From an uncultured Gemmatimonadota bacterium (GTDB lineage: Bacteria > JAAXHH01): 64,000 nucleotides of DNA. The position numbers and the translations under genes were made by a program. Below are positions 7,522 through 25,696 of this stretch, in pieces (within the stretch, counting starts at the first letter, position 1; each line of letters begins with the position of its first letter). The stretch is taken from the NCBI GenBank assembly GCA_951812955.1, contig OX638340.1:2528001-2592000 (forward strand). The letters run 5' to 3'. The notes beneath the pieces were generated by a model. That model had not been told where the DNA came from. It made no database searches and saw nothing but the letters and a program-made list of their open reading frames with translations.

Positions 7522-7651
7522 CGACCTTGATCCTCCAGATTGCGACGTTTCCAGTCTATCGGTGGAATACCGGTTGTCCCGCTCAGAATCCATGGTCTTC
7601 GACGTATTTGGCATCAGACCGTAGCCCGGCACCGGCCGGCGTCTATATCGT

Positions 7652-8540: not shown

Positions 8541-8582
8541 AGGTAAGTCACCCGAATGGACGTCTGAAGAACGTCGGAAACG

Positions 8583-11027
8583 CTACTCGTACCTCAACGC
8601 TTCAACAGGATTCGACCGCGCCGCTTTGAGGACGTGTAGGCCGACCGTGGAGGCCGCTACGGCAAGAATGGCCAGGCCCACCAGGACAAAGAGCGCCGGG
8701 TTGGGCGCAATGCGATAGGCGAAGTCACGCAGCCAACTTTCCATGACGAGGTAGGCGATCGGCCAGGCGATGACGCTCCCCGCAATGGCCATGATCACGA
8801 ACTCTTTCGACAGAAGCTGTACAAGTTGCGCCCTGGTCGCCCCCAAAATCTTGCGAACGCCGATTTCCTTCGTTCGCTGGTGCACGGTGAGGGAGACCAG
8901 GTTGAATAGCCCCAGGAAGGTCAGCACAATGGCAAGCAACGCGCATATTCCGAGGAGCGTGCCAAGGCGTTCTTCAGCCAAATACAGCTGGTCTATATCG
9001 TCTTCGAGAAAGGAATAGACGAGCGGGATTTCCGGGTAATGGGATCTCCAGACGCTATTGAGGTCCTCGAGCGCGGAGGCCGTACTCCCAGGTTGCAGTC
9101 GAACGCTCATGTGTTCGCCAAAGGAACTGCTTAAGAATACCATGGGCTCGACGGGCTGGTAAAGAGAACGAAAGTGGGTGTCTTGAATCACGCCGACGGC
9201 TCTGCCGCGCTGGACGTACTGCGGTAAGACGATTTCGATCGTCTTGTCCAGGGCCACTTCAGCGGAACTCCATCCCAGATGCCGGACGGCCGTTTCATTC
9301 AGGACTACCTCGAATACGGCGAACGGATTGAACATCCTCATATCTCTTGGCTTCAGATTCGAGCCCAGCACCAGGCTTATGTCCAGGGTCTCGAAAAAGT
9401 CGTGCTCCACGTTCACTATGCGGATAGACGAGGATACCGGCATATCGCTGTCGTCCCCGCGTCGAACCATGGTTTCCCCGATCATGCCCCTCCCCGGCGC
9501 GAGCCCGGGAACGTAATCCGACAGGGAGACGCCCTCGATGTACGGTGACCGCAGCAACTCGTTCTGGAATCCATCGGAGGATCTAGGATTAAACTGTTGG
9601 GAGCCTTCAGAAGAGCTTGATTCAATGGCCTCCACGAAGAATCCCGATATGAGGGGAACGACTATCACATTGGATTTTTCGAAGCCCGGAGGTTCGTTCA
9701 TCATGAACCGCAACTGGCTGTAGACCACACCCGTGCCGATGATCAGGATGGCGGAAAGGGCGAACTGGACCGTGATAAGAATACGCTTCACAAAGGGATA
9801 GTCGATCGCCTGGCTCAACCGGCGGCTAAGTGCGTCCATCGGCCGGTATCCAGACAGAACCATGGCCGGAAAACTCCCCGAGAATGCCCCCACGAGGACT
9901 GAAATGGCGATCAGACCAAGCCATATGTCGAGGTGTTGTATAAAACCCATGGACAGTGCCTTCCCAGTCACGGCGTTGAAGGCTGGAAGCGAAAGCCGGG
10001 CAAGCAGAACCGCCAGGACGAGTACCAGGCCTGAGATCATTACGGACCCGCTCAGATACTGCACGACAATACGTGAACGGTTCGCGCCGTACACTTTCAT
10101 TAGGCCCACTTCCTTCGCGCGGGCTGTCGACTGAACCATAGACAGATTGATGAAGTTGATGCAGGCGATCAGCAGCAGGAAAACGGCCCCCGTCATGAGG
10201 GTGTAGAGATAGGCCACACTGCTGTTCGCCTCGAGTTCGTTGAGTAGATTGGAACGCAGGTGAATCGCGGTCAGCGGTTGAAGGGAAAACCGGTAGTCCC
10301 GGATGCTCTCCCGGTTCACGGGCTTGATCTCGGTGTCGAAGTAAGCCTGGAACTTGGACGTCAGTTCCGGCACCAGGCTCTGATCGTGCAAACGCAGGTA
10401 CGTATAGTAGGTTGCGCTCCACCAGTTGTCCATGAACTGCAATTCCGTTCCGAAAGACAGGAACATGTCCGCGGTGAAATGCGTATGGCCCGGGAAGTCC
10501 TCCATGACGCCCGTGATGGTAAAGCTGTACGTGTTGTCCAGGCGCATCACCTCGCCCATGGGGTCCACTTCGCCGAAGTACTTCCTTGCCATCGATTCCG
10601 AGATGACCGCTTTGTTCTGCCCCTCCAATGCGGTGGCGGGATTCCCCTTGAGCAGGGGGATGGTGAAAACGTCGAATAGCGAAGGCTCGGTCCAGTAGAC
10701 CCGGTCTTCGTAGAACTCCCGGTCACCGAACCGTATAAGCCAAATGGCCCGAGTCGCCCGCATGCGGACAGCGCTTGCTACTTCCGGAAAGTTCTGTTTC
10801 AGCGTGGAAGCCGCTGCGCCCGGCGTGCGCGCGTTGTTGCCATTGATCAGCCGATAGACCTGCGGAGCGTACCTGTGGTGTGTATCGTAGGTCCATTCGT
10901 CCTTTATGTACAATAGCGTGAGTACGCACGCGGCCATGGCGATGGCCAGCCCCGTGACGTTGATGGTCGTATGGGATCTTTGCTTGAGCAGGGCTCTGAC
11001 GGCTATTCTGAGGTGGTGGGTGAACAT
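8583..11027 (-). CDS. MacB/FtsX-type ABC transporter permease (double FtsX module with large periplasmic domains), cassette A
   Basis: ~815 aa and roughly 57% identical (hand count over the first 100 aligned residues) to ORF 14447..16864. The C-terminal ...NPVEALRYE and TM/periplasmic-domain/3-TM pattern occur twice. Start set at MFTHHL (11027; GGGAG upstream; aligns with the paralog N-terminus). The ORF also opens at 11057. Confidence 0.85.
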   Translation of the reverse strand: MFTHHLRIAVRALLKQRSHTTINVTGLAIAMAACVLTLLYIKDEWTYDTHHRYAPQVYRLINGNNARTPGAAASTLKQNFPEVASAVRMRATRAIWLIRFGDREFYEDRVYWTEPSLFDVFTIPLLKGNPATALEGQNKAVISESMARKYFGEVDPMGEVMRLDNTYSFTITGVMEDFPGHTHFTADMFLSFGTELQFMDNWWSATYYTYLRLHDQSLVPELTSKFQAYFDTEIKPVNRESIRDYRFSLQPLTAIHLRSNLLNELEANSSVAYLYTLMTGAVFLLLIACINFINLSMVQSTARAKEVGLMKVYGANRSRIVVQYLSGSVMISGLVLVLAVLLARLSLPAFNAVTGKALSMGFIQHLDIWLGLIAISVLVGAFSGSFPAMVLSGYRPMDALSRRLSQAIDYPFVKRILITVQFALSAILIIGTGVVYSQLRFMMNEPPGFEKSNVIVVPLISGFFVEAIESSSSEGSQQFNPRSSDGFQNELLRSPYIEGVSLSDYVPGLAPGRGMIGETMVRRGDDSDMPVSSSIRIVNVEHDFFETLDISLVLGSNLKPRDMRMFNPFAVFEVVLNETAVRHLGWSSAEVALDKTIEIVLPQYVQRGRAVGVIQDTHFRSLYQPVEPMVFLSSSFGEHMSVRLQPGSTASALEDLNSVWRSHYPEIPLVYSFLEDDIDQLYLAEERLGTLLGICALLAIVLTFLGLFNLVSLTVHQRTKEIGVRKILGATRAQLVQLLSKEFVIMAIAGSVIAWPIAYLVMESWLRDFAYRIAPNPALFVLVGLAILAVAASTVGLHVLKAARSNPVEALRYE

Positions 11028-11040
11028 GATCGGGTGCTCC

Positions 11041-13503
11041 CTACGGTTCCAGGACAAGAAAGTTGACCGACTTGAAGACGCGCTGATCAGCGTGCCGGTC
11101 CGTCAGCGTCACGGTCAGCACATACTCCCCGGCTTCGAGATCCGTGGTGTCCATCGCGGTGTATTCAGCCTCTTCCGCTGAACTCCCCTCGCCTTCGAAG
11201 AAGGACATCACAGTCTGCATGTCGTCCGGCCTTCTGGCCCTGCGGTTCCTCAGTGCGGGCATGCCCAGGGGCGTGATTTCGTAAAGTGTCTCGTAGGAAG
11301 TGCGTCCGGCGTTGCCTAAATCCAGGTTGTACAATTCGTAGTAAACGTAAACGGGGTTTCCCCGAATGTAGAGCCGTCCCGGATTGGGCGTGATATTCAA
11401 CCCCTTGCGCACAAAGGGGCCCTGTACGCCTGACGGCGTGATGAGGGTGGCCAGCTTGAGATCGCTGATGAGCAGGTCGCGGCCGCGGTAGTCGGACAGC
11501 GTGACTGGCTTGCGATACACTCCGACCCGGCTCGTTGTCTCGTCCCGCACCTGGACTGCCAGCGTGAAACTACCCGACGGCGCGACAACGCTTTCAGGCA
11601 GGGTATACACCGGAACTTTCACGTTGCTTTCAGCCATCATACGCTTCGGCCTGTCGAAGGGACCGAAACCGAACTCGTGGGTGAACTGGGGGCTCATGGT
11701 CGAATCACGCAGGGTGACCAGGTGCGCGAGCCGGGTGCTGTTACCCCTGCCGTCCGAGACATCGCCGAACTGCCACACGGGGATGCTGTAGGACAGGTCC
11801 AGTTCCGTCGCGCCGTTGTCAGCCCTGTAGCTTACGGCGTCGAAGGCATATTCGAGTGGTTCTCCCCCGAAGTCGTGCAGGAATTCCTCGGGACTGCGCT
11901 TGATCAGGTTCTCGGCAACTCGTTGAGGATGATGGGTATCGTTTCGACGCATCAACTCGAAACCCGTGATGTCACCAAACGAATCCCCACCTTCATAGAT
12001 TGTCTGAAGTGGATAATCGAATTTCCCACCGCCCATCTGGTCCACGAAAAACAGTTCAAGATTATGCTGTACGTAAACCCAGCTTTCGACCTTGTACGAT
12101 TCTCCGACCAGACGTTTGAGTAACTCGAATGGATTGCTCTCCGACGAGCTCCCCCAGAGATCCACCGATCCCAAATCGAATCCCTGGAGCTGCATGATCT
12201 CCTCATCCAACAACGCCACCGGATCTCCCCTGCCCACCCGCAACACGTAGCCGGACTGCATATTCCGCACGCGTATTGCGTCCACGGCAGGAATCGCCGA
12301 CGGCTTGAAAACGGAAAAGGTGTTCCCATGCCTGCGCAGCAAGAAGTTGCTACGGTCATCCGGCGTACCGTATCGAACGTGAATCTCCCCGCGGCGGTCA
12401 AAGGGATACTGGCCCTCTGAGAAATGATTGCGGGCGTACAGTACGCGCCGGTAGTGTTCCACCAGGCGCTCGTTTTCGACGGTGGCCGGATTGGAATCCC
12501 GTGCGTTCCAGAAGGTCTGCCACAGCGCGTCGCGTTCCGGTCCTTCCACAGCCTCCCAGGTCTTCAATTCATCGGGAGGCGCGACATGTCGCAGGTCCCG
12601 GTACACCGCCTGCTCATCGGGATCGAGACCCGATATATAGGTCTCCAGGGCTTCCTGCAATCGATCGAACCCCCGTTCAGTCGAACCCGAAAGCATGCTG
12701 AACTGAAGCTGCAGGGTCCTGACCTCGTCCGCGACGGCATCTCCTGATTCTTCGACCAACTGTCCCAGGAGTTCAGCACCTATTTCGAACGCTTCGGCAC
12801 GAAGACACACATTGGTAAACCGCTCGAAGGCCCGACGGTGTTTGGGGTTTACCCGGTACTGGTTGAAATAGGCGGCTATCGCTTTTTCGTAGTCCGGCAA
12901 CGGGGGACTTTCATAACATCGTCCCAGTTGATAGTAGGCGTCCTCATGGGATGGATTCAGCTCTACGACCTTGAGGAAATACGTCCTGCCATCCCGGTCG
13001 CTGCCCACGATGGTATCTACTTTTTTATCATTCATGAAGGACATGCCCAGGTAGTACTGGGCGTCCGCGTTGTCCGGATCCAGGCGGATCGCGGTACGCA
13101 ACGCGTTGCGGGCATCCAGCTTTCTGTTTTGCAACTTCAGGTAGGTCTTCCCCAATCCGATGTGACCAGGCGCCCATTTTTTGTCCTGCCGCACTGCGCT
13201 CCTGAACGAACTCAACGCCTCACGGTAGTCGCCCAATTCATACCGCGCCATTCCGAGCCAGTAGTGGGCGGGCGCCGAATCCCCGTCAGCCTTGACGGCC
13301 ATTAGGAAGTACGGCAGCGCTTCCGCGTATCGTCCCTGTTGGTAAAGTGATTTGCCTTTTTCGTGGGCTGGCAGATCAATATCGGATACGGCCGATTGCG
13401 GCGGGGAAGTCCAGGTCTGGGAATGGCCGGGTAAACTCAGTGCAAGCGCGGCGATTGTAAGAAGCAGGCGGACGTACACGTAGTGCCTCTTTGGACGAAT
13501 CAA
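11041..13503 (-). CDS. secreted TPR-repeat protein with a GWxTD-like domain
   Basis: Signal peptide, multiple TPR-like repeats (AxxYxxLGxxY patterns), then ...LWQTFWNARDSNPATVENERLVEHYRRVLYARNHF...FDRRGEIHVRYGTPDD. This resembles the GWxTD domain family, but the motif position reads YPFDRRG. Confidence 0.55.
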   Translation of the reverse strand: MIRPKRHYVYVRLLLTIAALALSLPGHSQTWTSPPQSAVSDIDLPAHEKGKSLYQQGRYAEALPYFLMAVKADGDSAPAHYWLGMARYELGDYREALSSFRSAVRQDKKWAPGHIGLGKTYLKLQNRKLDARNALRTAIRLDPDNADAQYYLGMSFMNDKKVDTIVGSDRDGRTYFLKVVELNPSHEDAYYQLGRCYESPPLPDYEKAIAAYFNQYRVNPKHRRAFERFTNVCLRAEAFEIGAELLGQLVEESGDAVADEVRTLQLQFSMLSGSTERGFDRLQEALETYISGLDPDEQAVYRDLRHVAPPDELKTWEAVEGPERDALWQTFWNARDSNPATVENERLVEHYRRVLYARNHFSEGQYPFDRRGEIHVRYGTPDDRSNFLLRRHGNTFSVFKPSAIPAVDAIRVRNMQSGYVLRVGRGDPVALLDEEIMQLQGFDLGSVDLWGSSSESNPFELLKRLVGESYKVESWVYVQHNLELFFVDQMGGGKFDYPLQTIYEGGDSFGDITGFELMRRNDTHHPQRVAENLIKRSPEEFLHDFGGEPLEYAFDAVSYRADNGATELDLSYSIPVWQFGDVSDGRGNSTRLAHLVTLRDSTMSPQFTHEFGFGPFDRPKRMMAESNVKVPVYTLPESVVAPSGSFTLAVQVRDETTSRVGVYRKPVTLSDYRGRDLLISDLKLATLITPSGVQGPFVRKGLNITPNPGRLYIRGNPVYVYYELYNLDLGNAGRTSYETLYEITPLGMPALRNRRARRPDDMQTVMSFFEGEGSSAEEAEYTAMDTTDLEAGEYVLTVTLTDRHADQRVFKSVNFLVLEP

Positions 13504-13625: not shown

Positions 13626-14297
13626 TTACGCGGCCTCCGTCACGATCCGTCCGTCGAAGAGCCTGATGGTCCGGTGGGCGTGGTCGGCCAGCGCCTGGTC
13701 GTGGGTCACCATGATGATGGTCGTGCCCGCCTCGTTGAGGCCGTTGAGCAGTTCCATCACCTCGGCGCCGTTGGCCGAGTCCAGGTTACCCGTCGGCTCG
13801 TCCGCCAGGATCAGCCTGGGGTTGCCGATGACCGCCCGCGCCACGGCCACGCGCTGCTGCTGGCCGCCGGATAGCTGCTGCGGGAAGTGGTTCCGGCGGT
13901 GGGGGATCTGCATGTGCTCCATCGCCGCGTCCACCCGTTCCTTGCGCTCCTGCTTCGACGTGCCCAGGTAGATCAGCGGCAGTTCGATGTTCTCGTACAC
14001 GGTCAGCTCATCGATCAGGTTGAAGCTCTGGAAGACGAAGCCTATGTTGGCCTTGCGCAGGTTGGCGCGCTGCCGCTCGGAGTGGCCGGACACTTCCTGG
14101 TCCAGGAAATGGTACTCCCCGCCCGATGGATTGTCGAGGAGACCGAGGATGTTGAGCAGGGTGGACTTGCCGCAGCCCGAGGGTCCCATGACCGCCACGA
14201 ACTCGCCTTCGTCCACGGCCATGGTCACATCGTTCAGCGCCGTCGTCTCTACCTCTTCGGTCGCGTAGAGTTTCTTGAGATGTTCTGTCCTGATCAT
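13626..14297 (-). CDS. ABC transporter ATP-binding protein (MacB/LolD-like), cassette B
   Basis: ~92% amino-acid identity (about 18 differences counted by eye over 223 aa) to ORF 6148..6822, with the same Walker and signature motifs. Start set at MIRTEHLKKLY (14297) by alignment. The listed ORF extends to 14450. Confidence 0.9.
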   Translation of the reverse strand: MIRTEHLKKLYATEEVETTALNDVTMAVDEGEFVAVMGPSGCGKSTLLNILGLLDNPSGGEYHFLDQEVSGHSERQRANLRKANIGFVFQSFNLIDELTVYENIELPLIYLGTSKQERKERVDAAMEHMQIPHRRNHFPQQLSGGQQQRVAVARAVIGNPRLILADEPTGNLDSANGAEVMELLNGLNEAGTTIIMVTHDQALADHAHRTIRLFDGRIVTEAA

Positions 14298-14446
14298 GGT
14301 GCGCTCCCGTAGTGTGGTAATACTCCGTATCCACGCATGCCATTTCGGAATCGTTCCTAATATCAAAGTAGCAAATGAAGAGGGTTGCAATTCCAGGTCG
14401 GAGAGATTAACTCCATAGATTGTGCGACTACGTTCATGCTGGAGAA

Positions 14447-16864
14447 TCACTCATACCTGAGCGCATCTACCGGGTTCAACGGTGCTTCTTTTGTAACATG
14501 GAAGGCAATCGTAGCGATGATTACTAACAGAATCCCCATGCTTACCAAGATGTAGAGGCTAAGGGGTGGAGAAACTCGATATGCGAAATCTTGTAACCAA
14601 ACGGCAGTAACCAAGTACGCCAACGGCCACGCTACCAGATTGGCGATCGCTGCCATAACTACAAACTGTCTAGACAGCAACTGAGTCAATTTCATAACTG
14701 TAGCACCCAGGGTCTTGCGTATGCCTAATTCCTTCGTTCTCTGTTTTGTGGTCAGGGAGACCAGGTTGAAAAGTCCCAGGAATGTCAAGATAGTAGCTAA
14801 GATGGTACAGACACCTATAAGCGAACCTAGACGTTTCTCCGGTACGTAAAGTCGATCAATATCGTCCTCCAAGAGGGAATAGATAAATGGAATTTCAGGA
14901 AAATAAGACTGCCAGGTAAGATCTAGGTAACTTAACGCAGATTCCATTTTCCCATCCTGAAAGCGCACCATCATGTGTTCGCCATTACCGTTCGTGAAAA
15001 CCATCGGTTCAACAGGCTGATAAGACGACCGGAAGTGGGCATCCGCAACGACACCTACAACCCTGCCTCGTTGGGTGATCTGAGGGTATACGATATCTAT
15101 CGTCTGGTCTACTGCTGACACTGGAGAAGTCCAACCTAGGTGGCGTACTGCCGTTTCGTTGAGAACAAGCTCGATTACGGGCAAAGGCCCAAAAGTCGAA
15201 TATGTAGCAAGACTCCTGTGCCTCAAAAAGCGTCCGTGTACCAGCTGTAAACCCAGTGTGTTTATGTAATCGTGCTCAACGCCCACAAATCGTACGGATC
15301 TGGAATTCCTCAGACTGTTTCCTGCCCGAGTTCGAACCATCCCATCACCCATTGTACCACGGGCAGGTTCAAGTGCCGGCACATAAGTTGAGAATGAAAC
15401 GCTGAGTACATCTGGCGATCTCAACATATCGTTTTTGAATCCGCTAGGTGGAACTAGTATTCCGCCTGGGAAGAAGCCTGTTATCAGGGGTACATTGACT
15501 ACATTTGATTCGTCAAAACCCTGGGGTTTGGTCAACATGTATTGAATCTGGATGTAGACCACGCAGGTGCTGATAATCAGAATAGTGGAGAGAGAAAACT
15601 GGATGATGATGAGCATCCGTTTCACCAGTGGAAAGTCCACTGAATGGCTGATTCTGTTTCCAAGAGAAAAGAGAGGGTGTACTCCTGACATAACCAAAGC
15701 CGGAAATCCTCCTGAAACGACTCCAACGATTATCGCAACGACAACTATCCCAAGCCAGATTCCAAAGTCTTCAGTAACGCCAAAAGAAAGCGTTTTACCT
15801 GTCAGCCAATTAAATGATGGCAGTGCAAGATAGGTCAAAATGAGAGCTAAAAACAAAACCAACATCACCATGGTTAAGGATGCAATCATATGCTGCCTGA
15901 TAATCTGAATTCGATCAGCACCGAAAATCTTAATCAAACCCACTTCCTTCATCTGATCAGCCGAATGAACCATAGACAGATTGACAAAATTGATTGAAGC
16001 GATGAGCAACAAGAAGATCGCACCTGAAATGAGCGCAAAGATGTAACTCACACTGCTATTCACCTCGAGTTCATTCAAAAGGCGGGAACGAAGGTGAATC
16101 TCCGTTAGTGGTTGAAGTATGAAACTATACTCCCGGATCCACGCGCTGTTGCTAGGTTTTACCGTTGATTCAAAATACCGCTGAAACTTGTCTTCGAGAA
16201 TTGAAGCCTGGTTACCTTCGTTCAACCGGACGTAGGTGTAATAGTCGGGACGCGACCAGTTGTCAATGTAGGATAGTTCATTGCCGAAACTCAGGAAGAA
16301 CCCAGCCTCGAAATGGGAGTTGACCGGGAAATCCTCCATTATCGCGGTAACGGTAAAATCCCATGTGTTGTCGGCTTGCAACACCTTACCGATGGGATCT
16401 TCCTCGCCAAAGTACTTTCTGGCGACTGACTCTGATATAACGACCTTGCCTATGCCATCCAACGCGTTGGTTTTGTTCCCCTTTACAAGTGGTATGGTAA
16501 AGACATCAAACAAGGAGGCTTCGGTCCAGTATACCTTATCTTCGTAAAAAGCACGATCACCGTACTGCATTAGCCAGATGGCCCTGGCCGCCCTTAAACG
16601 AACAGTACTTACAACTTCAGGAAAGTTCAGCTCAAGGGAACCTGAGGCGGCACCTGGAGTTCGGGCATTGGTGCCGTCAATCAATCGGAAGATCTCGTTG
16701 GCGTGTTCGTGGTGAGAATCGTATTTCAGTTCTTCCTGGATATACATCAGGGTTAAAATACACATAGCCATCCCGACAGTTATTCCGCTGATGTTTAATA
16801 TGGTATTGGATTTCTGCTTTAATAGTGCACGGGTGGAGATTTTCAGGTGGTGGGGTAGTTCCAT
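14447..16864 (-). CDS. MacB/FtsX-type ABC transporter permease, cassette B (low-GC)
   Basis: 805 aa, paralog of 8583..11027, with the same double FtsX architecture and C-terminal NPVDALRYE. Confidence 0.85.
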   Translation of the reverse strand: MELPHHLKISTRALLKQKSNTILNISGITVGMAMCILTLMYIQEELKYDSHHEHANEIFRLIDGTNARTPGAASGSLELNFPEVVSTVRLRAARAIWLMQYGDRAFYEDKVYWTEASLFDVFTIPLVKGNKTNALDGIGKVVISESVARKYFGEEDPIGKVLQADNTWDFTVTAIMEDFPVNSHFEAGFFLSFGNELSYIDNWSRPDYYTYVRLNEGNQASILEDKFQRYFESTVKPSNSAWIREYSFILQPLTEIHLRSRLLNELEVNSSVSYIFALISGAIFLLLIASINFVNLSMVHSADQMKEVGLIKIFGADRIQIIRQHMIASLTMVMLVLFLALILTYLALPSFNWLTGKTLSFGVTEDFGIWLGIVVVAIIVGVVSGGFPALVMSGVHPLFSLGNRISHSVDFPLVKRMLIIIQFSLSTILIISTCVVYIQIQYMLTKPQGFDESNVVNVPLITGFFPGGILVPPSGFKNDMLRSPDVLSVSFSTYVPALEPARGTMGDGMVRTRAGNSLRNSRSVRFVGVEHDYINTLGLQLVHGRFLRHRSLATYSTFGPLPVIELVLNETAVRHLGWTSPVSAVDQTIDIVYPQITQRGRVVGVVADAHFRSSYQPVEPMVFTNGNGEHMMVRFQDGKMESALSYLDLTWQSYFPEIPFIYSLLEDDIDRLYVPEKRLGSLIGVCTILATILTFLGLFNLVSLTTKQRTKELGIRKTLGATVMKLTQLLSRQFVVMAAIANLVAWPLAYLVTAVWLQDFAYRVSPPLSLYILVSMGILLVIIATIAFHVTKEAPLNPVDALRYE

Positions 16865-17284
16865 AACTGGCCTACAGATACTTAGTAAATGGTTCTAAGA
16901 GGGTTGTGATTAACGTCGAAGGGGCAGTTGAAAGTCTATAACTGCCTGTACGTTTAAACTCGTCCTCCGGTTTGATCAGCCCCAGACGTTCGCCGAGTGT
17001 TTTGGACTCGTCCACCACTGGCATTCAGCGAGGAGAGCATTTCCGTTGTCGGTGCGTGGAGCGTCGTTTGTTTTTTAACCTTGATGAATTCAATACCCAG
17101 ACGAAGTCGGTCAATCAACTCTTCCAACTGCTTGATTTGAATAGGCTAATAGAGGAAGTCACGGCGAAGGCTTCACTGGCAATATCGCGACTTTGATTCA
17201 GGTAGTTAATGTTGTCGTACGCATCTTAGTCTCCATGTGCGCTGTCAGGTTGGGTCTGTGACGGATTTTGTGTTACTGACTTTA

Positions 17285-17500
17285 TCATGTTAAGGGCACT
17301 TTGTCTTCGTACATGATGATGAACTTGCTGGTGGCGGCCGTCCAGTTGGCGATGGGCCGTGTCTACCTTCGGGCCAGGTAGAGCAGTTTCCTGGCTACCC
17401 CGTCGGTGGGGAAGGCGCCGCCGCGCTATGGTCACCCCCAGTCTGCATGAGCACGTTCACCGCCCGTTACAATTCTGCTTCACATTGCATGGCGGCCAGC
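17285..17500 (-). mobile_element. decayed C-terminal relic of an IS256 (Mutator)-family transposase
   Basis: My own reverse-strand translation gives ...IVTGGERAHADWG*P*RGGAFPTDGVARKLLYLARR*TRPIANWTAATSKFIIMYEDKVPLT**. The block FP(T/S/N)D..A.KLLYLA...NW..A...F.I.F.D is the conserved C-terminal signature of IS256-family transposases. Several in-frame stops are present and no N-terminal part was found. Confidence 0.6.
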
Positions 17501-17707
17501 AATAGACTGGCAAAAGACGGTCAAAGGACAGGCGTAAACTTGTCGCTCTGAGTGCTATCCTTTACATAAACCTCTTCGACTCAGTCGTCTTCCACGGCTT
17601 CTTTATTCAGTCGACGTTTTCATCAAGCCCTTTAGATCCTCGTCGGTCTGTCTTGAAGCTACCGTGTATTTAACACCGCTCCCTTGTCATGAAGTACGAC
17701 CCACTCG

Positions 17708-18709
17708 TTAATTGACAATCTGCAATCTATTCTGGATCCCTCTTGTAAAAATAAACTGTCCATGCTGATCAATCCAGATCCCCTCGACGTATGGCATATC
17801 GTTCAGCAATCTCTGAGAACTTTCGATACCCATAACATAAGTCGCTGTGGCAAGCGCATCCGCTATCATTGCGTCGGGAGCGATAATCGTGGCGCTATGC
17901 ACGTGATCCGTCGAAGTCCCAAGTCGAGGATTGAGTATGTGTGTAATACGGCGACCTTGATTGATTTTGTAGTTTTCATAACCACCCGACGTCGCAACCG
18001 CCTCATCTTCGATTTCGACTGTGGCGCACAATGTATTGGGATGGTATGGAGACCGGATACCAATACGCCAAAGACGTTCAGGTTCTGGCCTTCCCATGGC
18101 AAGAACATCCCCACCTGCAGATATCAACCCGCATCTAATGTGGCGGTTTCGTAATACGTGAGCCATTCGATCCAATCCGTAACCTTTTGCTATTCCGCCA
18201 AAGTCTACCCCATAACCAGACGAAGCAATTCGTACTTTCTGTTCTTGCACTTGCAACTGATTAAAGTCTACCAGTTCGAGCATTTGCCGTAAGCTTCGAC
18301 TTGACGGATCACAATTATAAAATCCCCAGTGGTACATAATCGGTAGAATTGTCACATCGAAGGCACCATCTGTAATCTCGCCGATTCGTCTTGCTGTAGT
18401 CGCGACCTTGATAAAGTGGGGTGTTACGCCATGCCAAAGCCCATACATGTTGTTTACATGCGTAAGTTCACTGGTATTACGATAGAGGCTTAGCAGGCTG
18501 TCAATTTGAGCTAAAGCATCGAAGGCATCATAAATTGATTCTTTACTGTACTCGCATTCCTTGATTACAAGTTCTACTTTCGTCCCCATATGAATCTGAT
18601 GACGACGAACAAGCCTTTGCTTGTCTGACAATCCTGCGCCAAAATTGTATGGCACAAGTAACATTGCCGATGAAAGGCCGACCGATTTTATGAAATTGCG
18701 TCGCTTCAT
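17708..18709 (-). CDS. apbE: FAD:protein FMN transferase (ApbE family) with a Tat-type signal
   Basis: The N-terminus MKRRNFIKSVGLSS is twin-arginine-like. Also ...DFGGIAKGYGLDRMA...ISAGGDVLAMG...WRIGIRSP...ATSGGYENY...HILNPRLG...PDAMIADALATA, the typical ApbE motif series. Confidence 0.85.
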   Translation of the reverse strand: MKRRNFIKSVGLSSAMLLVPYNFGAGLSDKQRLVRRHQIHMGTKVELVIKECEYSKESIYDAFDALAQIDSLLSLYRNTSELTHVNNMYGLWHGVTPHFIKVATTARRIGEITDGAFDVTILPIMYHWGFYNCDPSSRSLRQMLELVDFNQLQVQEQKVRIASSGYGVDFGGIAKGYGLDRMAHVLRNRHIRCGLISAGGDVLAMGRPEPERLWRIGIRSPYHPNTLCATVEIEDEAVATSGGYENYKINQGRRITHILNPRLGTSTDHVHSATIIAPDAMIADALATATYVMGIESSQRLLNDMPYVEGIWIDQHGQFIFTRGIQNRLQIVN

Positions 18710-18778
18710 AGGGGCTATGCTATGATGGAATCTAGGACCATCTTTGTTTTCAAAAACAAGGCTACGTACAGAAAGCCC

Positions 18779-19378
18779 CTAACCTCGATGGATATGCCTA
18801 AGTCTATTGAGAGCATCAACAATATGAATCGAGCTTTTGGTAGCACCTGTGATTCCGTCGATATTTTCGCCTAATACGTAGAAATGTAGGTTCGGTTTCG
18901 ACTTAAATTGCCTCAGAAACCTCGTTTCATCCTCAACAGATAGTGGTTCACCGGAGAGTTCAAGGGGTTCAAGCACTCTGATATCATGGAGCCGACCCAA
19001 GTCATCGAGTGCGACGAGCATTCGGACGTTATTGCAAACAGGACATTTGAGATCCTCCTGTATTTCGTAGACGTAGCCAACAGTGTCGATTCGTTCGTCA
19101 AACACCACATATCGATCGTAACCTCTGAATTTCTCGTGTTTGCTAGAATAGCTTTCAGAGAAAGCGGATATAGTGAATTCCCTTAAGATACGATCGTCAA
19201 GTGGTGGGAATATGTCGGATGAAGTAATCGAACCACTTCCCGATCCCAAGTTCGACACGTGTGAGTAAATCACATCGTCATCACATGAATGTCCGGATAA
19301 GTAGACTATATTGACCACAGCAATTACTACTCCGGTTATAAGAAACATGGTTCTTTGAATGAGTTTGAAATTTCGCAT
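18779..19378 (-). CDS. membrane-anchored FMN_bind-domain protein with a predicted flavinylation site
   Basis: Start set at MRNFKLIQ (19378) by alignment with the cassette A homolog. One N-terminal TM helix. GYVYEIQEDLKCPVCNNVRMLVALD core. DGITGAT at 18839-18859 matches the Dxx(S/T)GA(T/S) ApbE acceptor motif known from NqrC/RnfG. Confidence 0.7.
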   Translation of the reverse strand: MRNFKLIQRTMFLITGVVIAVVNIVYLSGHSCDDDVIYSHVSNLGSGSGSITSSDIFPPLDDRILREFTISAFSESYSSKHEKFRGYDRYVVFDERIDTVGYVYEIQEDLKCPVCNNVRMLVALDDLGRLHDIRVLEPLELSGEPLSVEDETRFLRQFKSKPNLHFYVLGENIDGITGATKSSIHIVDALNRLRHIHRG

Positions 19379-19515
19379 ACTACAACCGAACTCCATCTTC
19401 GTTTGAGCAGAAGAGGCCGAAGTTTGACTGGTTGTTCCTTGGGAGCCACGACATAGATTTGGGATTTCACTGACTGAACAGAATGTTGAGTTGAGGGGAG
19501 GCCGAGCCAATACAC

Positions 19516-19932
19516 TTATCTAAGGCGGAAGCTCATTGGAAAGTAGAATTGCGCAGATATAGGCTTTCCTTCCTTAGTCGCTGGCTTGAAAATCATCATT
19601 CGTGCTTGCGACAGTGCAAGACTATCTAGTTCTGGATGGGTCGACGATTCTATGATCGAAACAGATTCCACCGTGCCATCTGCCTTAGATCTTAAGAGAA
19701 GTACAACATCGCCTTCATTGCTGTACTTATCCTGTGGCGTGGGTCTAAACAATAGTCGTGGAGACGTATCCCAATCACCCACTTTAGCTATAACTTCAGT
19801 GTCAACTTGGGTTTCTTCCACCGGCACACTATCGTTCTCTACATTTCTGTCGTTACTGCAGGAGATGACTAACGAAAAGAGTACAATCTGGGACAGGCTG
19901 AATCGAAGCATTTGTGGAGCCCTTTCTGTCAT
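19516..19932 (-). CDS. lipoprotein with a TonB_C-like domain, cassette B
   Basis: Lipobox LVISC. The C-terminus GDVVLLLRSKADGTVESVSIIESSTHPELDSLALSQARMMIFKPATKEGKPI fits the TonB C-terminal pattern. Confidence 0.6.
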   Translation of the reverse strand: MTERAPQMLRFSLSQIVLFSLVISCSNDRNVENDSVPVEETQVDTEVIAKVGDWDTSPRLLFRPTPQDKYSNEGDVVLLLRSKADGTVESVSIIESSTHPELDSLALSQARMMIFKPATKEGKPISAQFYFPMSFRLR

Positions 19933-20022
19933 ATGAGGTCGATTTCTGAACGCGAGGTAAATTCTGATTCATGTTCTAACTTTCAATGTGATTCAAAATC
20001 ACCAGTATAAGTTAAAACCTGA

Positions 20023-21735
20023 TCAATCGGGGCTATTGACCCGAGAAGTAAATCGAAAATTGTATTTAAATATCGTATTTTGGGGGACGATGAGTCGTGT
20101 TCCCATAGTGGGCATTAAACGAAACCTGCCTACAGACTCTAAGGCGATACTATCCAGTGCCGGATGTGCTGATGGTGTCTTTGTCCAAATCGAATCTACG
20201 ATACCATTTGAGTCGAAAAGTACGTTCACTGCAATTTCCATTTCGTCAAGATGACCGTACTCAAGAGGGAATGCACGACTCGTAGCCGTACCGAGGTGCA
20301 AGATTAGAGGTTCTTCATACGATGGCACAACATAGTCGTCAATGATCCCGTCGGTCACTAGTCGAATGTATTGGTCATATCCTTCCAAGGATCGCCAGGA
20401 ATCATCTTTTGTGAATCTGGCGATACTCTGTGCAAAAGATGTAAAAGGGAGGTCACCGATACGGCGAGGATGGGACATCATGTTGACGGATTGATTGTTG
20501 GCGTACGATCTGATAAAAAGACTCGATTCATCTATCGGCATGGAAGACACGTTATCGAAGTATCGTGTGAAAGTTGACCGGTCCGACCCGTTGGAATCAT
20601 GGGCTTCGGTGGACGGCATGTTAGTGAAGTATTGAGAGATATCAAATCGGTCTGACCCGCTGGATGCCTGCACTTCGCGATAGGTAGTTGTAGTCAGATA
20701 GTACTCCACATTTGAAACGTAGAATACGGAAATGGTCGCATCATGAGACCGGACGTAGTCTGATATACCACGCAAGGCTGTTTCACCGGCGAAATCACCT
20801 ACGACTGGAACGATCAAGTTCCTCCCGTGCAACTTCTTGACGACGTCAAATGCACTATCATCAGCAAGGAAGTTGGCTTGCTCCCCACTTATCGTTTCTG
20901 CAAGAATCAACTCCCGCAGACTCGGGAAATTAAAGGTTGCATCCCCCGGTGTTCCCAGATCGTACTGGATGTCTAACTGGCTCCTGAAGAAAGCCTGATA
21001 GACTCGTTCGACAGCTTTCATATCTTCCATCGAGTCTATGCCATACGAATGTAAATGGGACTTGATGACCCGGAGATTTCGCTCGTAGAGTTTTACATCG
21101 GGATCTATTCCGTCGAAATATGCGATCAGCGTTGCAACAGATGATTCACTTCGAGACCAGGGCCGGACCGGTCCTCCCTTAAATATCTCGGCCAGGTAGG
21201 AGAGATTCCGGTTCAATGGTTTGCTGAGCAGCCTAGACAGGAATTCAGCACTGTCGCTGGACTGAGCGAAGAGGGACTTGTAGATCAGGTGCAACAGCAT
21301 GTTATCGCGACGAATGTCAACCACGAAAGCCATGTGCGGCCTGGTCTCGGCGATGTAGGTAAAATTCTGTTCGGGGCCGACACCCACATAAACGCCACCG
21401 GAAACGTGCCGTTCGCGTAGTACGGCAAATGGATGCAGGTAAGAAGATTCGTTTGAGGTGAAATTGGTTGAATGAAAGGAGCCACCCGTCTCCGACAGTT
21501 CTCTAATCAGGTTCGAGAAGGCTGGCGTGGACAGTGAGTCCGGGAGGGCACCTGCTCTTGGATATGGCTTTACAGTCCTCTTGTTAGACCAATCAGAAGG
21601 ATTGTAACACTGGACTGCAAACAACATCACGACAACACCTGCCGTTATCCATGTTGTTGTTTTCCATATAACCATATCCGAGGATTTCCAAGCAGCTAAA
21701 GATTGACCTAAGTATTGTGAAAGTCTCTCAGCCAC
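20023..21735 (-). CDS. N-terminally anchored protein: unrecognised ~400-aa central domain plus a TonB_C-like C-terminus
   Basis: One TM helix (WITAGVVVMLFAV). The central region with GVGPEQNFTYIAETRPHMAFVVDIRRDN...HLIYKSLF could not be assigned to a named family. The C-terminus IAVNVLFDSNGIVDSIWTKTPSAHPALDSIALESVGRFRLMP is TonB_C-like. Confidence 0.5.
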   Translation of the reverse strand: MAERLSQYLGQSLAAWKSSDMVIWKTTTWITAGVVVMLFAVQCYNPSDWSNKRTVKPYPRAGALPDSLSTPAFSNLIRELSETGGSFHSTNFTSNESSYLHPFAVLRERHVSGGVYVGVGPEQNFTYIAETRPHMAFVVDIRRDNMLLHLIYKSLFAQSSDSAEFLSRLLSKPLNRNLSYLAEIFKGGPVRPWSRSESSVATLIAYFDGIDPDVKLYERNLRVIKSHLHSYGIDSMEDMKAVERVYQAFFRSQLDIQYDLGTPGDATFNFPSLRELILAETISGEQANFLADDSAFDVVKKLHGRNLIVPVVGDFAGETALRGISDYVRSHDATISVFYVSNVEYYLTTTTYREVQASSGSDRFDISQYFTNMPSTEAHDSNGSDRSTFTRYFDNVSSMPIDESSLFIRSYANNQSVNMMSHPRRIGDLPFTSFAQSIARFTKDDSWRSLEGYDQYIRLVTDGIIDDYVVPSYEEPLILHLGTATSRAFPLEYGHLDEMEIAVNVLFDSNGIVDSIWTKTPSAHPALDSIALESVGRFRLMPTMGTRLIVPQNTIFKYNFRFTSRVNSPD

Positions 21736-21771
21736 TTCTTTTGACTAAGAGACTCTCACGCCGGATCAGCC

Positions 21772-23055
21772 CTAACAACTTCTACCACCATTACAGTAAC
21801 AACCTACATAGCCCCACACATATGCATCCCCACAGTCATCATAATAACTACAATATACGCGATGGGCCAGGACCGCATAGGCAAAGGAGAAGGGCAACGC
21901 GCACTGCAACCCCACGTGGACGATTCGATCGAGCATCCAGACTATCACGGGTAGGGCTGGACCGGATGCCGGAACCAGACCCCAAGAGGACAGGAGCGTG
22001 CCGGGTTTCGTGATTGTCCACATCGGCGCGAGGATGAGGGCCAGGATGAATCCGGCCTCGATAATCTGGAGGCGTATGCGCTGTTGCTGGCTCGCCACGA
22101 AACGCTGGGCAATCAGTAGGCATCCTGTTAAGATAACAACGAGGAGAGGAAACATTGGAACGGGAATGGGCTCAACTATGCGGACGACGAACTGCGCAAT
22201 CTCATTATTCCAACCATGGGTGATGCTCAGTAAGTAGATCGAATGTAAGACTATCCACACAAAGAGAGGCGTCAGGATGAACAATGCTTTTTTTCGTAAC
22301 CATTCTCCAAAGACAGACGAACTTGGAAAAACAGTTAATATCTGAAAGATAAGAACAGTTTCCAGGATTGTTGCTAATACGACGATGTATATACTGAGCG
22401 ATAGTAACCAAACCGGCCATCCTGCGATCATGGGATGAAAGGCAGGAGACGATGTGAGCGCCGTAGCGAGGAAGAGCAACGCGCATCGAAAGGCGATGAC
22501 GTTTAGATGACTGCGGAATCCCATCCAAGTACCAAAACCTAACAGCACGATCGGGAAGATCAGAAAGGGTCCTCTTTGGAACCAGGTCATCTCCGCGACA
22601 CCCATCACAATCTCCTGCTGATCAACCTGTAGGGTGTAAGGTACCTCTTCGATCTCCTCAAGTGTCATGATACCGGTATGTATCCGATCTTCGCGAAGCC
22701 AGACGATTTCGATACGTTCTCCGGGTTGACTTTGCAAACGTGCCTGGAAATAGGCTTCTGGTCGTGATCTCAGGTCGATTCCATTTACCGATATGATCCG
22801 GTCGCCCGACTGTATTCCTGCCAGGTCGGCCGGACTTCCGTTCTCGATCTGTACTGCGATGATACCTTCGTCTTGGCGAATCCGGACGAGATGAAACCAC
22901 GTACCTTCCTGTAGATTGCTAACGGCGCTCTTCGTCAACCCCGGCGTTTGTATCATCTCGCTACCAAAAAATTGAATGCCGGGCGACCAGTGTTCGATCT
23001 GCGTGAATCGAACAAGTGTCCACGCCACCAGACCCAATTGCATGCATAGCAGCAA
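21772..23055 (-). CDS. PDZ-domain polytopic membrane protein with a Cys/Tyr/Gly-rich tail
   Basis: PDZ-like segment GIIAVQIENGSPADLAGIQSGDRIISVNGIDL, followed by ~8 hydrophobic helices. The tail is YCSYYDDCGDAYVWGYVGCYCNGGRSC. The TTG start is uncertain, because the frame is open 17 codons further upstream with no canonical start. Confidence 0.6.
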   Translation of the reverse strand: MLLCMQLGLVAWTLVRFTQIEHWSPGIQFFGSEMIQTPGLTKSAVSNLQEGTWFHLVRIRQDEGIIAVQIENGSPADLAGIQSGDRIISVNGIDLRSRPEAYFQARLQSQPGERIEIVWLREDRIHTGIMTLEEIEEVPYTLQVDQQEIVMGVAEMTWFQRGPFLIFPIVLLGFGTWMGFRSHLNVIAFRCALLFLATALTSSPAFHPMIAGWPVWLLSLSIYIVVLATILETVLIFQILTVFPSSSVFGEWLRKKALFILTPLFVWIVLHSIYLLSITHGWNNEIAQFVVRIVEPIPVPMFPLLVVILTGCLLIAQRFVASQQQRIRLQIIEAGFILALILAPMWTITKPGTLLSSWGLVPASGPALPVIVWMLDRIVHVGLQCALPFSFAYAVLAHRVYCSYYDDCGDAYVWGYVGCYCNGGRSC

Positions 23056-23506
23056 GGCAAGTGTACAAACTATGAGATATCGATAGTTGAAAAACTTCAG
23101 TTGAGATCACCCCTGAGACTATGGACTGGATTCCGCAATACATGTTGCGTTGTGCCGACAATCGCCGTAAAGAGTTCAATTATAGACTATTCAGAGAAGA
23201 CGTGTCGGCAGCTTTGAAGAAATGTTACGAAACAGTAAGTGTCAAGAAAGTGCTGGTCACTGGTATTAGTCGTTACAAGGACCAGAACGAGGTCTTGTAG
23301 AAAATACTGGTCTAAACTAACACGGAATAGGAAAGGGAAGGTATTGCGAAACTATTGCTTGCGTTGTAGAACCGGCCATTCAACTCTGTGTGGTCGATTC
23401 AACCTGGCGGACCGCAGGTCGATTGGATTGTTCTTAAGGCTTTTTCAACTCGATTGTGTATCGTAGCCACGAGTTTTTAGCCGAAACAAAGCGACGCCCT
23501 TAAAAC

Positions 23507-23614: not shown

Positions 23615-25696
23615 GTGTTCGTGAAGGAATATCGCATCGAAAACATCAGAAACATATGCCTCGCGGGCCACGGGGGGAGCGGCAAGACCTCCCTGGCGGA
23701 AGCCATGCTCTTCAACGCCGGCGCCACGAACCGCCTGGGCAGCGTGGACGATGGCAACACGGTTTCCGACTACCGCGAGGAAGAGATCGAGCACCGCATT
23801 TCGATGAACCTCACACCCCTTCACTTCGAGTGGAACGAACAGAACCTCCACGTGATCGACACCCCGGGATATTCCGATTTCACCAGCGAGGTGCACTGCG
23901 CGATGCGCGTCTCGGACAACGTGGCTATCGTGGTCAAGGCCATCGAAGGCATCGAGGTGGAGACCGAACGCGCCTGGGAATATACAGAACAGTACGGCCT
24001 GCCCCGCATGGTGGTGGTCAACCTGCTGGATAAGGAACACGCCGACTTCTACGACGTGCTGGGCCGCATCCAGGAACGGTTCGGCACGCAGGCCGTCCCC
24101 CTGCAAATCCCCATCGGCGAAGGCGAAGGCTTCGCGGGCGTTGTCGACCTGGTCGCCATGGAGGCGGTGACCTCTGAAGACGGCAAGGACAGCCGCGGCG
24201 AAATCCCCGGCGATCTCGCTGACCTGGCGGAGGAGTACCGTGAAAAGCTCATGGAGGCGGTGGCGGAATCCGACGATGGGCTGCTCGAGGTTTACTTCGA
24301 AGAAGGCGCATTGTCCGATGAGCAGCTCCTGGAAGGACTGCGAAAGGGTGTGCGGGAAGGCGCCATTTACCCCGTCATGGCGACATCGGCTACGCGGAAT
24401 ATCGGGGTCTCCGGCGTGATGGACGCGGTGGGAGCGTACCTGGCCTGCCCTGCGGACCGGCCGCCGGTTACGGTCACCCCTTCGGGAGGAGACGAAGAAA
24501 TCGCCCTGGATTCCGATCCATCCGGGCCCCTGGCGGCCCTTGTTTTCAAGACGGTTTCCGAAGCCCATATCGGAGAACTCACCTATTTCCGAGTGTATTC
24601 CGGCGAGATCAAGCACGGCGGCGACGTCTACAACTCGTCCAAGAACACGGCGGAGCGGTTCGGTCAGATCTACCAGACGAACGGCCACGAGCGGCATGAA
24701 CTGAACGTCATCCGCGCCGGCGAGATCGGGGCGACGGTCAAGCTGAAGGATACCCACACCGGCGACTCGCTCAGTACGAGACAGAAAACCTTCGACCTGG
24801 AGTGGGTGAACTTCTCCGAGCCCGTGGCGAACGTGGCCGTCCTGCCAAAGAGCAAGGAAGACGAGGAGAAGATCAGCACCGGCCTCTCCCGGCTGCACGA
24901 GGAAGATCCCTCCTTTACCTTCCAGTTCAACAGCGAGATCAAGCAGCTGATCCTGGCCGGGGCCGGCGAAATGCACCTGGACCTCATCGTCGAGCGGCTC
25001 AGCCGCCGTTTCGGCGTGGAAGTCGAGATGGTGCAGCCGCGCATTCCCTACCGCGAAGCAATCAAGGGCAAGTCCGAGGCCCAGGGCCGGTTCAAACGGC
25101 AGAGCGGAGGTCGCGGACAGTTCGGCGACGTCTGGCTGCGCGTGGAACCCAGGCATCGCGGCGACGGTTACGAATTCGACAACGGCATCGTCGGCGGAGC
25201 CGTCCCCAGCCGCTTCATTCCGGCGGTGGACAAGGGCATCCAGGAGGCCATGGTGGAGGGCGTGATGGCCAAGTATCCCGTGGTCGATCTGAAGGCCACG
25301 TTGTACGATGGCTCCTTCCACACGGTCGATTCATCCGAAATGGCCTTCAAGGTCGCCGCGTCCATGGGATTCAAGAAGGCCTTCATGGAAGCCCGGCCCG
25401 TCCTGCTCGAACCGATCTACGAAGTGGACGTGGTCGTCCCGGAAGACTATATGGGCGACGTCATGGGAGATCTTTCCAGCCGGCGCGGACGCATCCTGGG
25501 CATGTCGCCGCGGGGGAGCAACCAGGTGGTGCGGGCCGAAGTGCCCCTGGCCGAACTGTACAGGTACTCGACCGTGTTGCGATCGATAACGCACGGGCGC
25601 GGCAGCCACGCACGGAAATTCGTCCGCTACGAGGAAATACCGAAGGAAATCGAGAACAAGGTCATCGAAGAGGCCAAGACCCAGGAAGAGGACTGA
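23615..25696 (+). CDS. elongation factor G family GTPase (EF-G paralog)
   Basis: G1 AGHGGSGKTS, DTPGYSDF, and NLLDKE, with full EF-G domain length (693 aa). RBS GAGGAGG. The start may be the GTG at 23621. Confidence 0.85.
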   Translation: MFVKEYRIENIRNICLAGHGGSGKTSLAEAMLFNAGATNRLGSVDDGNTVSDYREEEIEHRISMNLTPLHFEWNEQNLHVIDTPGYSDFTSEVHCAMRVSDNVAIVVKAIEGIEVETERAWEYTEQYGLPRMVVVNLLDKEHADFYDVLGRIQERFGTQAVPLQIPIGEGEGFAGVVDLVAMEAVTSEDGKDSRGEIPGDLADLAEEYREKLMEAVAESDDGLLEVYFEEGALSDEQLLEGLRKGVREGAIYPVMATSATRNIGVSGVMDAVGAYLACPADRPPVTVTPSGGDEEIALDSDPSGPLAALVFKTVSEAHIGELTYFRVYSGEIKHGGDVYNSSKNTAERFGQIYQTNGHERHELNVIRAGEIGATVKLKDTHTGDSLSTRQKTFDLEWVNFSEPVANVAVLPKSKEDEEKISTGLSRLHEEDPSFTFQFNSEIKQLILAGAGEMHLDLIVERLSRRFGVEVEMVQPRIPYREAIKGKSEAQGRFKRQSGGRGQFGDVWLRVEPRHRGDGYEFDNGIVGGAVPSRFIPAVDKGIQEAMVEGVMAKYPVVDLKATLYDGSFHTVDSSEMAFKVAASMGFKKAFMEARPVLLEPIYEVDVVVPEDYMGDVMGDLSSRRGRILGMSPRGSNQVVRAEVPLAELYRYSTVLRSITHGRGSHARKFVRYEEIPKEIENKVIEEAKTQEED

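Follow-up and report, generated by a model that had tools for sequence, protein, structure and literature searches.

A Tat-type ApbE and a CPVC-bearing FMN_bind protein as a possible thiol-oxidizing couple for disulfide-rich peptides in uncultured bacteria

We uncovered a two-gene flavinylation unit in an uncultured Gemmatimonadota bacterium whose presumed acceptor protein carries a conserved pair of cysteines at the predicted flavin-binding site. The unit lies on the minus strand, within positions 17708–19378 of the 64,000-nucleotide stretch of contig OX638340.1 that was analyzed (the window), and codes for a single-pass FMN_bind protein with a CPVC motif and, 69 nt downstream of it, an ApbE-type FAD:protein FMN transferase (FAD, flavin adenine dinucleotide; FMN, flavin mononucleotide). 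The genes, their motifs, the conservation of these motifs and the synteny of the unit with related loci can be read directly from the DNA; the module conserved across these loci combines the predicted flavinylated CxxC protein with a thioredoxin, cysteine-rich secreted peptides and a MacB-type pump. Because of this combination we favor, at a shade below an even chance, the interpretation that disulfide-rich peptides are folded by a periplasmic relay with a flavinylated thiol oxidase and then handed to the MacB pump for export.

The ApbE gene (17708–18709, minus strand; 333 aa) is intact. Its product matches the profile hidden Markov model PF02424 with E=7.3e-72, covering 263 of 266 profile positions, and aligns with TM1553 and other solved ApbE structures via the stretches GGIAKGY, ATSGGYE (ATSGxYE), HILNP (HIxxP) and ADALATA (ADAL(A/S)TA). 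This full-length match, with the FAD/Mg-binding and catalytic-histidine stretches conserved, identifies it as an ApbE flavin transferase. The N-terminus (MKRRNFIKSVGLSSAMLLVP) begins with MKRRNFIKS, and all eight ApbE orthologs that were extracted share the pattern M[KN]RRxF[IL][KR]S with a hydrophobic stretch after it. Such a leader corresponds to the twin-arginine consensus and fits export by the twin-arginine translocation (Tat) pathway; no lipobox cysteine is seen in the N-terminus, as would be typical of a lipoprotein signal for the Sec pathway and signal peptidase II. In a 2025 review of the ApbE family, the signals described for the characterized members are of the lipoprotein type only (PMC12052999). 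The ratio of nonsynonymous to synonymous substitution rates (dN/dS) of the gene is 0.15 relative to the ortholog in locus L002. The initial annotation of this DNA, which had proposed an intact Tat-exported ApbE beside the FMN_bind gene, is supported on this point.

The FMN_bind protein (18779–19378, minus strand; 199 aa), the presumed substrate of this ApbE, matches PF04205 over residues 117–192 with 23.8 bits against a gathering score of 22, in agreement with the domain assignment that had been made from the sequence alone. Its flavinylation motif, DGITGAT, spans residues 174–180 (18839–18859, minus strand), with the codon of the acceptor Thr180 at 18839–18841. As had been proposed, it is an exact instance of the Dxx[ST]GA[ST] pattern; it is the single match to it in a six-frame translation of the whole window and is invariant in 34 homologs. 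The sole transmembrane segment, found by hydropathy scan, comprises residues 11–29 (19292–19348, minus strand; mean Kyte–Doolittle hydropathy 2.18), is preceded by R2, K5 and R9, and corresponds to a helix of residues 3–28 in an AlphaFold2 model. Because there is a single transmembrane segment with a positively charged N-terminal flank, and the partner ApbE is of the Tat type, the protein is predicted to have its N-terminus inside and its FMN_bind domain facing the periplasm. We considered a lipoprotein signal and rejected it, as the candidate Cys32 is not conserved in the 34-member alignment. The dN/dS relative to the L002 ortholog is 0.38.

The distinguishing feature of this protein is the CPVC motif, formed by C112 and C115 (19034–19045, minus strand). 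For its placement relative to the flavin we used an alignment of the 34 close family members (A1), in which both cysteines are invariant, and a wider-family alignment (A2). The narrow A1 profile produced only chance-level matches in the PDB; RnfG was reached only by the broader A2 profile, which matches the solved RnfG chains 7zc6_G (E=4e-11) and 9eri_G, and aligns C-P-V-C with G-Y-A-G and E-L-x-G with E-T-P-G of RnfG. Within that wider alignment, the RnfG-like protein P0126 shows GYSS and ETPGLG at the positions equivalent to CPVC and ELxG, respectively. The AlphaFold2 model, with a predicted local distance difference test score (pLDDT) of 72, likewise has 7zc6_G as its sole significant PDB match. 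In the 1.56 Å structure of NqrC, the isoalloxazine ring is squeezed between loop 6–7 (Gly148, Leu149 and Trp150) and the ETPGLG loop (Glu176–Gly181), which lies 28 residues downstream (PMC4348036). The spacing between C112 and E140 in the window protein is also 28 residues; therefore, by this count rather than by direct alignment, we infer that CPVC occupies the equivalent of the flavin-packing loop 6–7. If so, only a few Å would be expected to separate the two thiols from the flavin ring. Of the two possibilities raised in the initial annotation, a dithiol or a metal site near the flavin, a dithiol is a reasonable reading given the position of CPVC on the RnfG GYAG loop, and we hold a redox dithiol to be more probable than a metal site, as no cysteines other than these two are conserved in the wider family.

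RnfG and NqrC thus give both the best profile matches and the best fold matches, and share with the window protein a single N-terminal transmembrane helix followed by an alpha/beta domain, a Dxx[ST]GA[ST] motif starting the last helix, and a cognate ApbE. They differ from it in that the window pair lies outside any Rnf/Nqr operon and in that it has CPVC where they have GY(G/A)G and ELSGEP where they have ETPGLG. Membership in the Rnf, Nqr or NosR systems was considered and rejected: the ETPGLG motif is missing and the scores fall far under the cutoffs of the subfamily models for RnfG/NqrC (TIGR01947, 20.3 against 102; NF041840, 20.7 against 230).

The CPVC proteins constitute a compact family. 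A word-indexed search recovered 39 clusters at 50% identity or more, all of approximately 190–205 aa and most with a precomputed PF04205 match; across the 34 aligned members, C112, C115, D174, G178, T180, the ELxG stretch and the single transmembrane helix are invariant. A genome scan found the family in metagenome-assembled genomes (MAGs) of Candidatus Latescibacterota and in unclassified MAGs, and a near-identical protein bears no annotation beyond ‘FMN-binding protein’. In an exhaustive profile search of 1.8 billion representatives, one sequence scored 349 bits and one fragment of 91 aa scored 165, with the next full-length single-domain proteins at 120 bits or less. By this gap in bit scores the family is isolated. 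The next-best matches are single-pass proteins of 170–200 aa with 22–29% identity to the window protein, which keep ED[IL]xCPVCxDVR and [ST]GA[ST], both cysteines being nearly invariant. A metagenome scan with a further profile (A3) yielded seven loci, three of them of the CxxC family (L022–L024). Two other loci encode FMN_bind proteins of about 280 aa outside the CxxC family (L026:6488–7333 and L028:4695–5543), each followed by a Cys-rich protein of about 770 aa.

In Latescibacterota, the pair is part of a conserved island. In the loci with enough upstream DNA to establish the gene order (L001/L008, L002/L003 and L004–L007; L009 ends too early upstream), genes for a thioredoxin-like protein, one or two peptides, a DUF7790 protein, usually a TonB_C protein, a MacB_PCD/FtsX permease, the FMN_bind(CPVC) protein and ApbE recur together in this order, sometimes with a membrane-fusion adaptor and an ABC ATPase after ApbE; the adaptor is intact in L001. 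Two arrangements are seen: in the L001 type the permease gene stands ahead of the FMN_bind gene, and in the L002 type it follows ApbE. Genes for a PDZ–HisKA_3 sensor kinase and two LuxR-type regulators are found upstream in L002, L003 and L018, and the end of a regulator gene is visible at the edge of L007. The thioredoxin-like protein is membrane-anchored, has about 197 aa, a DCxxC motif and a weak AhpC-TSA match, and is TlpA-like; the thioredoxins of the module match the ResA, StoA and DsbE models. The peptide genes (79–111 aa, one or two in tandem; e.g., L001:4544–5453 and L004:4708–5327) encode a hydrophobic leader, at the end of which ...W(D/N)VPxIG(V/I)(Q/E)(E/D)AxA is conserved, and a hypervariable core of about 40 residues with an even number of cysteines, 6 or 8. 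They matched no family in Pfam or NCBIfam. The Latescibacterota MAGs carrying the island appear, from their record names, to be coral or sponge associated. These loci also put the initial annotation's view of the pair as lacking partner genes in a different light: no Nqr, Rnf, NosR or fumarate-reductase genes lie near the pair, and scans of 1–26 kb of the window and of the related loci found none of the Rnf/Nqr type, but the conserved island with its MacB-type pump, TlpA-like thioredoxin and Cys-rich peptides points to a function.

The core of this island is retained in distant relatives. The distant CxxC queries are 22–29% identical to the window protein, and their loci match a Latescibacterota ortholog at up to 36% identity in tblastn searches. 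In every distant locus that extends past the FMN_bind(CxxC) gene (L010, L011, L012, L014, L015, L016/L017, L024 and L029), an AhpC-TSA/Redoxin thioredoxin gene directly follows it, the exceptions being only in the completeness of that gene, which is partial in L012 and in two fragments in L014 (a contig of 2x coverage). A signal-peptide protein of 65–86 aa with 6–12 cysteines comes next in four of them (L010, L011, L015 and L029); the L014 contig encodes it upstream. In L011 and L029, genes for an NHL-repeat protein and a MacB/FtsX permease come after it, and L015 has ApbE and an adaptor 5 kb away. A core of FMN_bind(CxxC), thioredoxin, Cys-rich peptide and, in part, MacB persists in relatives at 22–36% identity. 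The FMN_bind proteins of L011 and L029 are 89% identical, and their peptides (L011:11079–11285 and L029:11287–11484) have identical signals, with cores that diverge on one cysteine framework. Identical signals joined to divergent cores on a fixed framework are typical of toxins or bacteriocins under diversifying selection.

ApbE-flavinylated proteins are recognized as extracytoplasmic electron carriers. In the relay that we propose, ApbE would be exported, probably in folded form and via Tat, which would let it bring FAD into the periplasm, and it would move FMN from FAD to Thr180 on the periplasmic face. With CPVC in place of the GY(G/A)G loop, a redox-active cysteine pair would then stand beside the covalently held flavin. 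The Sec-exported peptides of about 40 residues, with their 6–8 cysteines, would pass thiol electrons to the adjacent TlpA-like membrane thioredoxin, from which the electrons would run through CPVC to FMN and on to O2 or another periplasmic acceptor. Finally, the folded peptide would be expelled from the periplasm by the MacB-type permease together with its ATPase and adaptor, in the manner of the Escherichia coli enterotoxin STII via MacAB-TolC. The PDZ kinase may, more speculatively, sense the C-terminus of the peptide. Inferred in this scheme are the position of CPVC beside the flavin (by homology), the way in which the electrons flow, their final acceptor and the nature of the clients.

To our knowledge, all characterized de novo disulfide generators hold a CxxC motif against a flavin or quinone and work with a thioredoxin-fold carrier (Ero1/PDI, Erv1/Mia40, QSOX, DsbB/DsbA and VKOR). 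Ero1, Erv1/ALR, QSOX, DsbB and VKOR would share with the window system this logic of a CxxC against a flavin or quinone, a thioredoxin-fold carrier and secreted Cys-rich clients. The fold of these generators is, however, unrelated, and the window protein, with its putative activity, would carry FMN attached by ApbE as a phosphoester in place of non-covalent FAD. Indeed, the fold search gave only RnfG and NqrC and no Erv/Ero1 homology, so the likeness is one of functional logic and not of membership. As to export, MacB pumps draw their substrates from the periplasm, and the peptides that they are known to carry are small and contain disulfide bonds. In the case of STII, export by Sec is followed by oxidation in the periplasm by Dsb and then by expulsion through MacAB-TolC (PMC5985334). 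With MacAB-TolC/STII and DarBCD/darobactin the island shares a MacB/FtsX permease, an adaptor and an ATPase for a small peptide, along with a weak DarB match. It differs from them in that the window permease consists of one duplicated, ADOP-like chain, its ATPase being separate, and no outer-membrane duct gene was seen, and from STII in that the latter is oxidized by DsbA/DsbB, whereas the oxidation machinery proposed here would be dedicated and island-encoded.

Several points weigh against this interpretation. That the flavin is covalently bound, that CPVC is redox-active and that electrons run in the proposed direction are predictions from the genes, and the proximity of the cysteines to the flavin comes from sequence mapping, the AlphaFold2 model being of moderate quality (pLDDT 72) with its acceptor loop below 50. 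No terminal electron acceptor was identified, and radical-SAM/SPASM genes near L012, L014 and L015 hint at habitats or chemistries in which O2 may not be the acceptor. The thioredoxin of L029 (L029:10588–11184) has CPAG and so just one cysteine; CPVC is retained in the FMN_bind protein beside it. In the window itself the genes for the proposed client and carrier are deleted, such that the intact pair may be without local clients. Furthermore, thioredoxins of the TlpA/ResA type are usually reductants.

This last point leads to a reductive or isomerase relay, in which the flavin–CxxC protein would keep the TlpA-like thioredoxin reduced, replacing the DsbD/CcdA-to-TlpA route, and disulfides of the peptides or of other envelope proteins would be reduced or reshuffled. 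The matches of the island thioredoxins to the ResA, StoA and DsbE models, most characterized members of which are reductants, would suit such a relay; DsbD/CcdA was found in none of the gene tables of the related loci, so the electrons would need another source. However, a single transmembrane helix cannot conduct electrons across the membrane, the conserved module encodes neither a membrane nor a cytoplasmic donor, and certain ResA/DsbE-like proteins, namely SdbA, Mycobacterium tuberculosis DsbE and FetE, act as oxidases (PMC10783030). We regard a reductive or isomerase relay as unlikely.

A decidedly slim chance attaches to the idea that the protein is a generic RnfG/NqrC-like extracytoplasmic one-electron carrier for a partner encoded elsewhere, with CPVC as a structural disulfide and the neighboring genes as coincidental. 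Its closest solved relative is indeed RnfG, and FMN_bind domains serve many unrelated electron-transfer systems (PMC8238504). Nevertheless, the adjacency of the thioredoxin persists at 22–36% identity and in different genomic backgrounds, the flavin-contacting ETPGLG motif is replaced, the TIGR01947 (rnfG) score is 20 against a cutoff of 102, and Rnf/Nqr genes are absent from the 1–26 kb of the window that were scanned and from the related loci.

The FetMP-FetABCDEF (P19) systems share with the island an ABC transporter and membrane-associated thioredoxins, with FMN_bind proteins in the Gram-positive versions. They differ from it in that the island has Cys-rich peptide genes and lacks P19/Ftr1 (neither P19 nor an Ftr1-type permease occurs in any locus Pfam list or among the window open reading frames (ORFs) scanned), and in that FMN_bind and thioredoxin genes co-occur in it instead of being alternatives. 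That the pair is a metal redox accessory of this kind, reducing or handling Fe or Cu for transport with the peptides as metal carriers, is very improbable: Fet clusters do pair the ABC transporter FetBCD with the membrane thioredoxins FetE/F (PMC10783030), an FMN-binding protein does substitute for the thioredoxin-like gene in Gram-positive P19 clusters (PMC8238504), and TonB_C domains are present in the island, but P19, Ftr1, TonB-dependent receptor and siderophore genes are absent from all locus gene tables, two conserved cysteines are few for a metal site, and hypervariable cores on a fixed cysteine framework behind a conserved leader resemble toxins or bacteriocins more than metallophores.

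Returning to the oxidative relay, a bolder form of it would make the CxxC FMN_bind protein a third bacterial de novo disulfide generator beside DsbB and VKOR, folding, with a dedicated carrier and MacB-type export, hypervariable conotoxin-like peptides of uncultured bacteria, among them the apparently sponge- or coral-associated Latescibacterota; we put this forward as a possibility that is more doubtful than not. In the main text of the 2021 flavinylation survey, thioredoxin-like proteins come up only in connection with DsbD/DUF3570 and P19 systems, and there is no mention of MacB, FtsX or ABC transporters (PMC8238504); thioredoxin, cysteine and peptide all go unmentioned in its 2024 follow-up. 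In the available parts of these two surveys, neither a cysteine pair in an FMN-binding domain nor a link of such a domain to TlpA-like thioredoxins, Cys-rich peptides or MacB-FtsX is described, and a text search of the literature found nothing relevant on thiol oxidases that are flavinylated or on FMN_bind proteins with a CxxC. If correct, the proposal would give the bacterial envelope a further, flavin-based way of forming disulfides, offer a biochemical handle on the hypervariable disulfide-rich peptides of uncultured, apparently host-associated Latescibacterota, and furnish a compact, self-contained oxidation module for engineering, consisting of ApbE and a 20-kDa protein.

In the window, the pair is embedded in a cassette, here termed B, whose other genes also lie on the minus strand. 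It includes an intact, duplicated, ADOP-like MacB_PCD/FtsX permease (14447–16864; PF12704 and PF02687), which scores 207 bits with TIGR03434 and 91 bits with the DarB model, both under the cutoff, and is 86% identical to its L002 ortholog, and the ABC ATPase of the pump (13626–14297; PF00005, E=6e-35; start set by tblastn). The permease with both MacB_PCD and FtsX domains and the ABC ATPase together make up a MacB-type pump. Between ApbE and the permease, at 16953–17601, lie fragments of a decayed membrane-fusion (adaptor) gene, matched by the L001 adaptor in tblastn at 17601–17440 and 17172–16953; the island in the window has no intact adaptor, and no gene for an outer-membrane duct (OEP). 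On the other side of the pair are genes for a small TonB_C-domain protein of 138 aa (19516–19932; PF03544, E=1.4e-10), syntenic in L002, L004–L007 and L009, and for a DUF7790 protein with a C-terminal TonB_C-like domain (20023–21735; PF25046, E=2.2e-30), syntenic in all Latescibacterota loci. The former is possibly a lipoprotein, judging from a lipobox-like ..LVISC read by eye. The sole PDB relative of DUF7790 is the uncharacterized 6ulo, and a literature search for it gave nothing useful. Both TonB_C domains, that of the 138-aa protein and that at the C-terminus of the DUF7790 protein, are without the usual N-terminal anchor and proline-rich region of TonB. The six intact genes of cassette B, for the ATPase, permease, ApbE, FMN_bind, TonB_C and DUF7790 proteins, have dN/dS values of 0.09–0.38 relative to L002, indicating purifying selection.

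The island has been eroded in the window, which the initial annotation had missed: the thioredoxin gene is lost along with the greater part of the peptide gene, and what stands between ApbE and the permease is an adaptor pseudogene. At the regulatory and peptide end lies an in-frame fusion ORF (21772–23100, minus strand), delineated by tblastn with L002 proteins and by DNA comparison with L018, L019 and L002, which joins the N-terminal 416 aa of the PDZ–HisKA_3 kinase (PDZ and membrane region) to the last 26 or so residues of the Cys-rich peptide (…CSYYDDCGDAYVWGYVGCYCNGGRSC). At the junction, at about 21853–21857, kinase residue 416 runs straight into peptide residue 57 (21857/21854). Relative to L002 and L018, the latter being a contig that encodes an identical ApbE protein, about 4.7 kb are deleted, comprising the catalytic half of the kinase, the genes for the two regulators, for a 173-aa protein and for the thioredoxin, and the leader of the peptide. 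Microhomology at the junction amounts to only 2–3 nt, with no shared repeat, and identity to L018 differs across the flanks (85% versus 96%); an assembly artefact is unlikely to be behind the fusion. Loci L019 and L022, from sister strains, match 6.4 kb of the window (15415–21854) at 99.8% identity and retain the thioredoxin and an 82-aa peptide. The regulatory and peptide end of the island seems unstable among near-identical strains. In L019 (1967–2911) and L022, a DDE transposase of an insertion sequence lies upstream of the thioredoxin gene, whose N-terminus is altered, a third structural variant.

The window also holds a second, decayed cassette, A, of the L001-type arrangement (6148–11057, minus strand). 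Its permease (8583–11057) and ATPase (6148–6822) are intact, its adaptor is missing, and remnants are left of the FMN_bind gene (8136–8507), of the C-terminal part of ApbE (7661–8153) and of a TonB_C-like gene (7156–7293). FMN_bind residues 15–133 (8136–8489, including EDLRCPVCNNVR) run into ApbE residues 171–332 (7661–8153) in a different frame, with loss of the acceptor motif and the N-terminal half of ApbE. The motif EDL(K/R)CPVCNNVR of the intact protein, said to be kept in this remnant as well, is indeed found there near 8201, as EDL(R)CPVCNNVR. The ATPase genes of the two cassettes are 90% identical in DNA, with G+C fractions of 0.61 (6148–6822) and 0.64 (13626–14297), and the cognate permeases have about 57% protein identity; the contrast points to gene conversion, or else to the ATPase of cassette B having been replaced. 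Between the cassettes, an 820-aa ORF (11041–13503) shares 17 nt with the beginning of the cassette A permease and has tetratricopeptide repeats (TPR) only in its first 220 or so residues; homology between L018 and the window extends over most of this ORF. Cassette B (about 14300–23100) has a G+C content of 43–50%, compared with about 54–67% in the rest of the window, and this low-G+C island is probably horizontally acquired or compositionally distinct. A gene for a paralog of elongation factor G (23615–25696) adjoins it, as it likewise does in L002 and L018.

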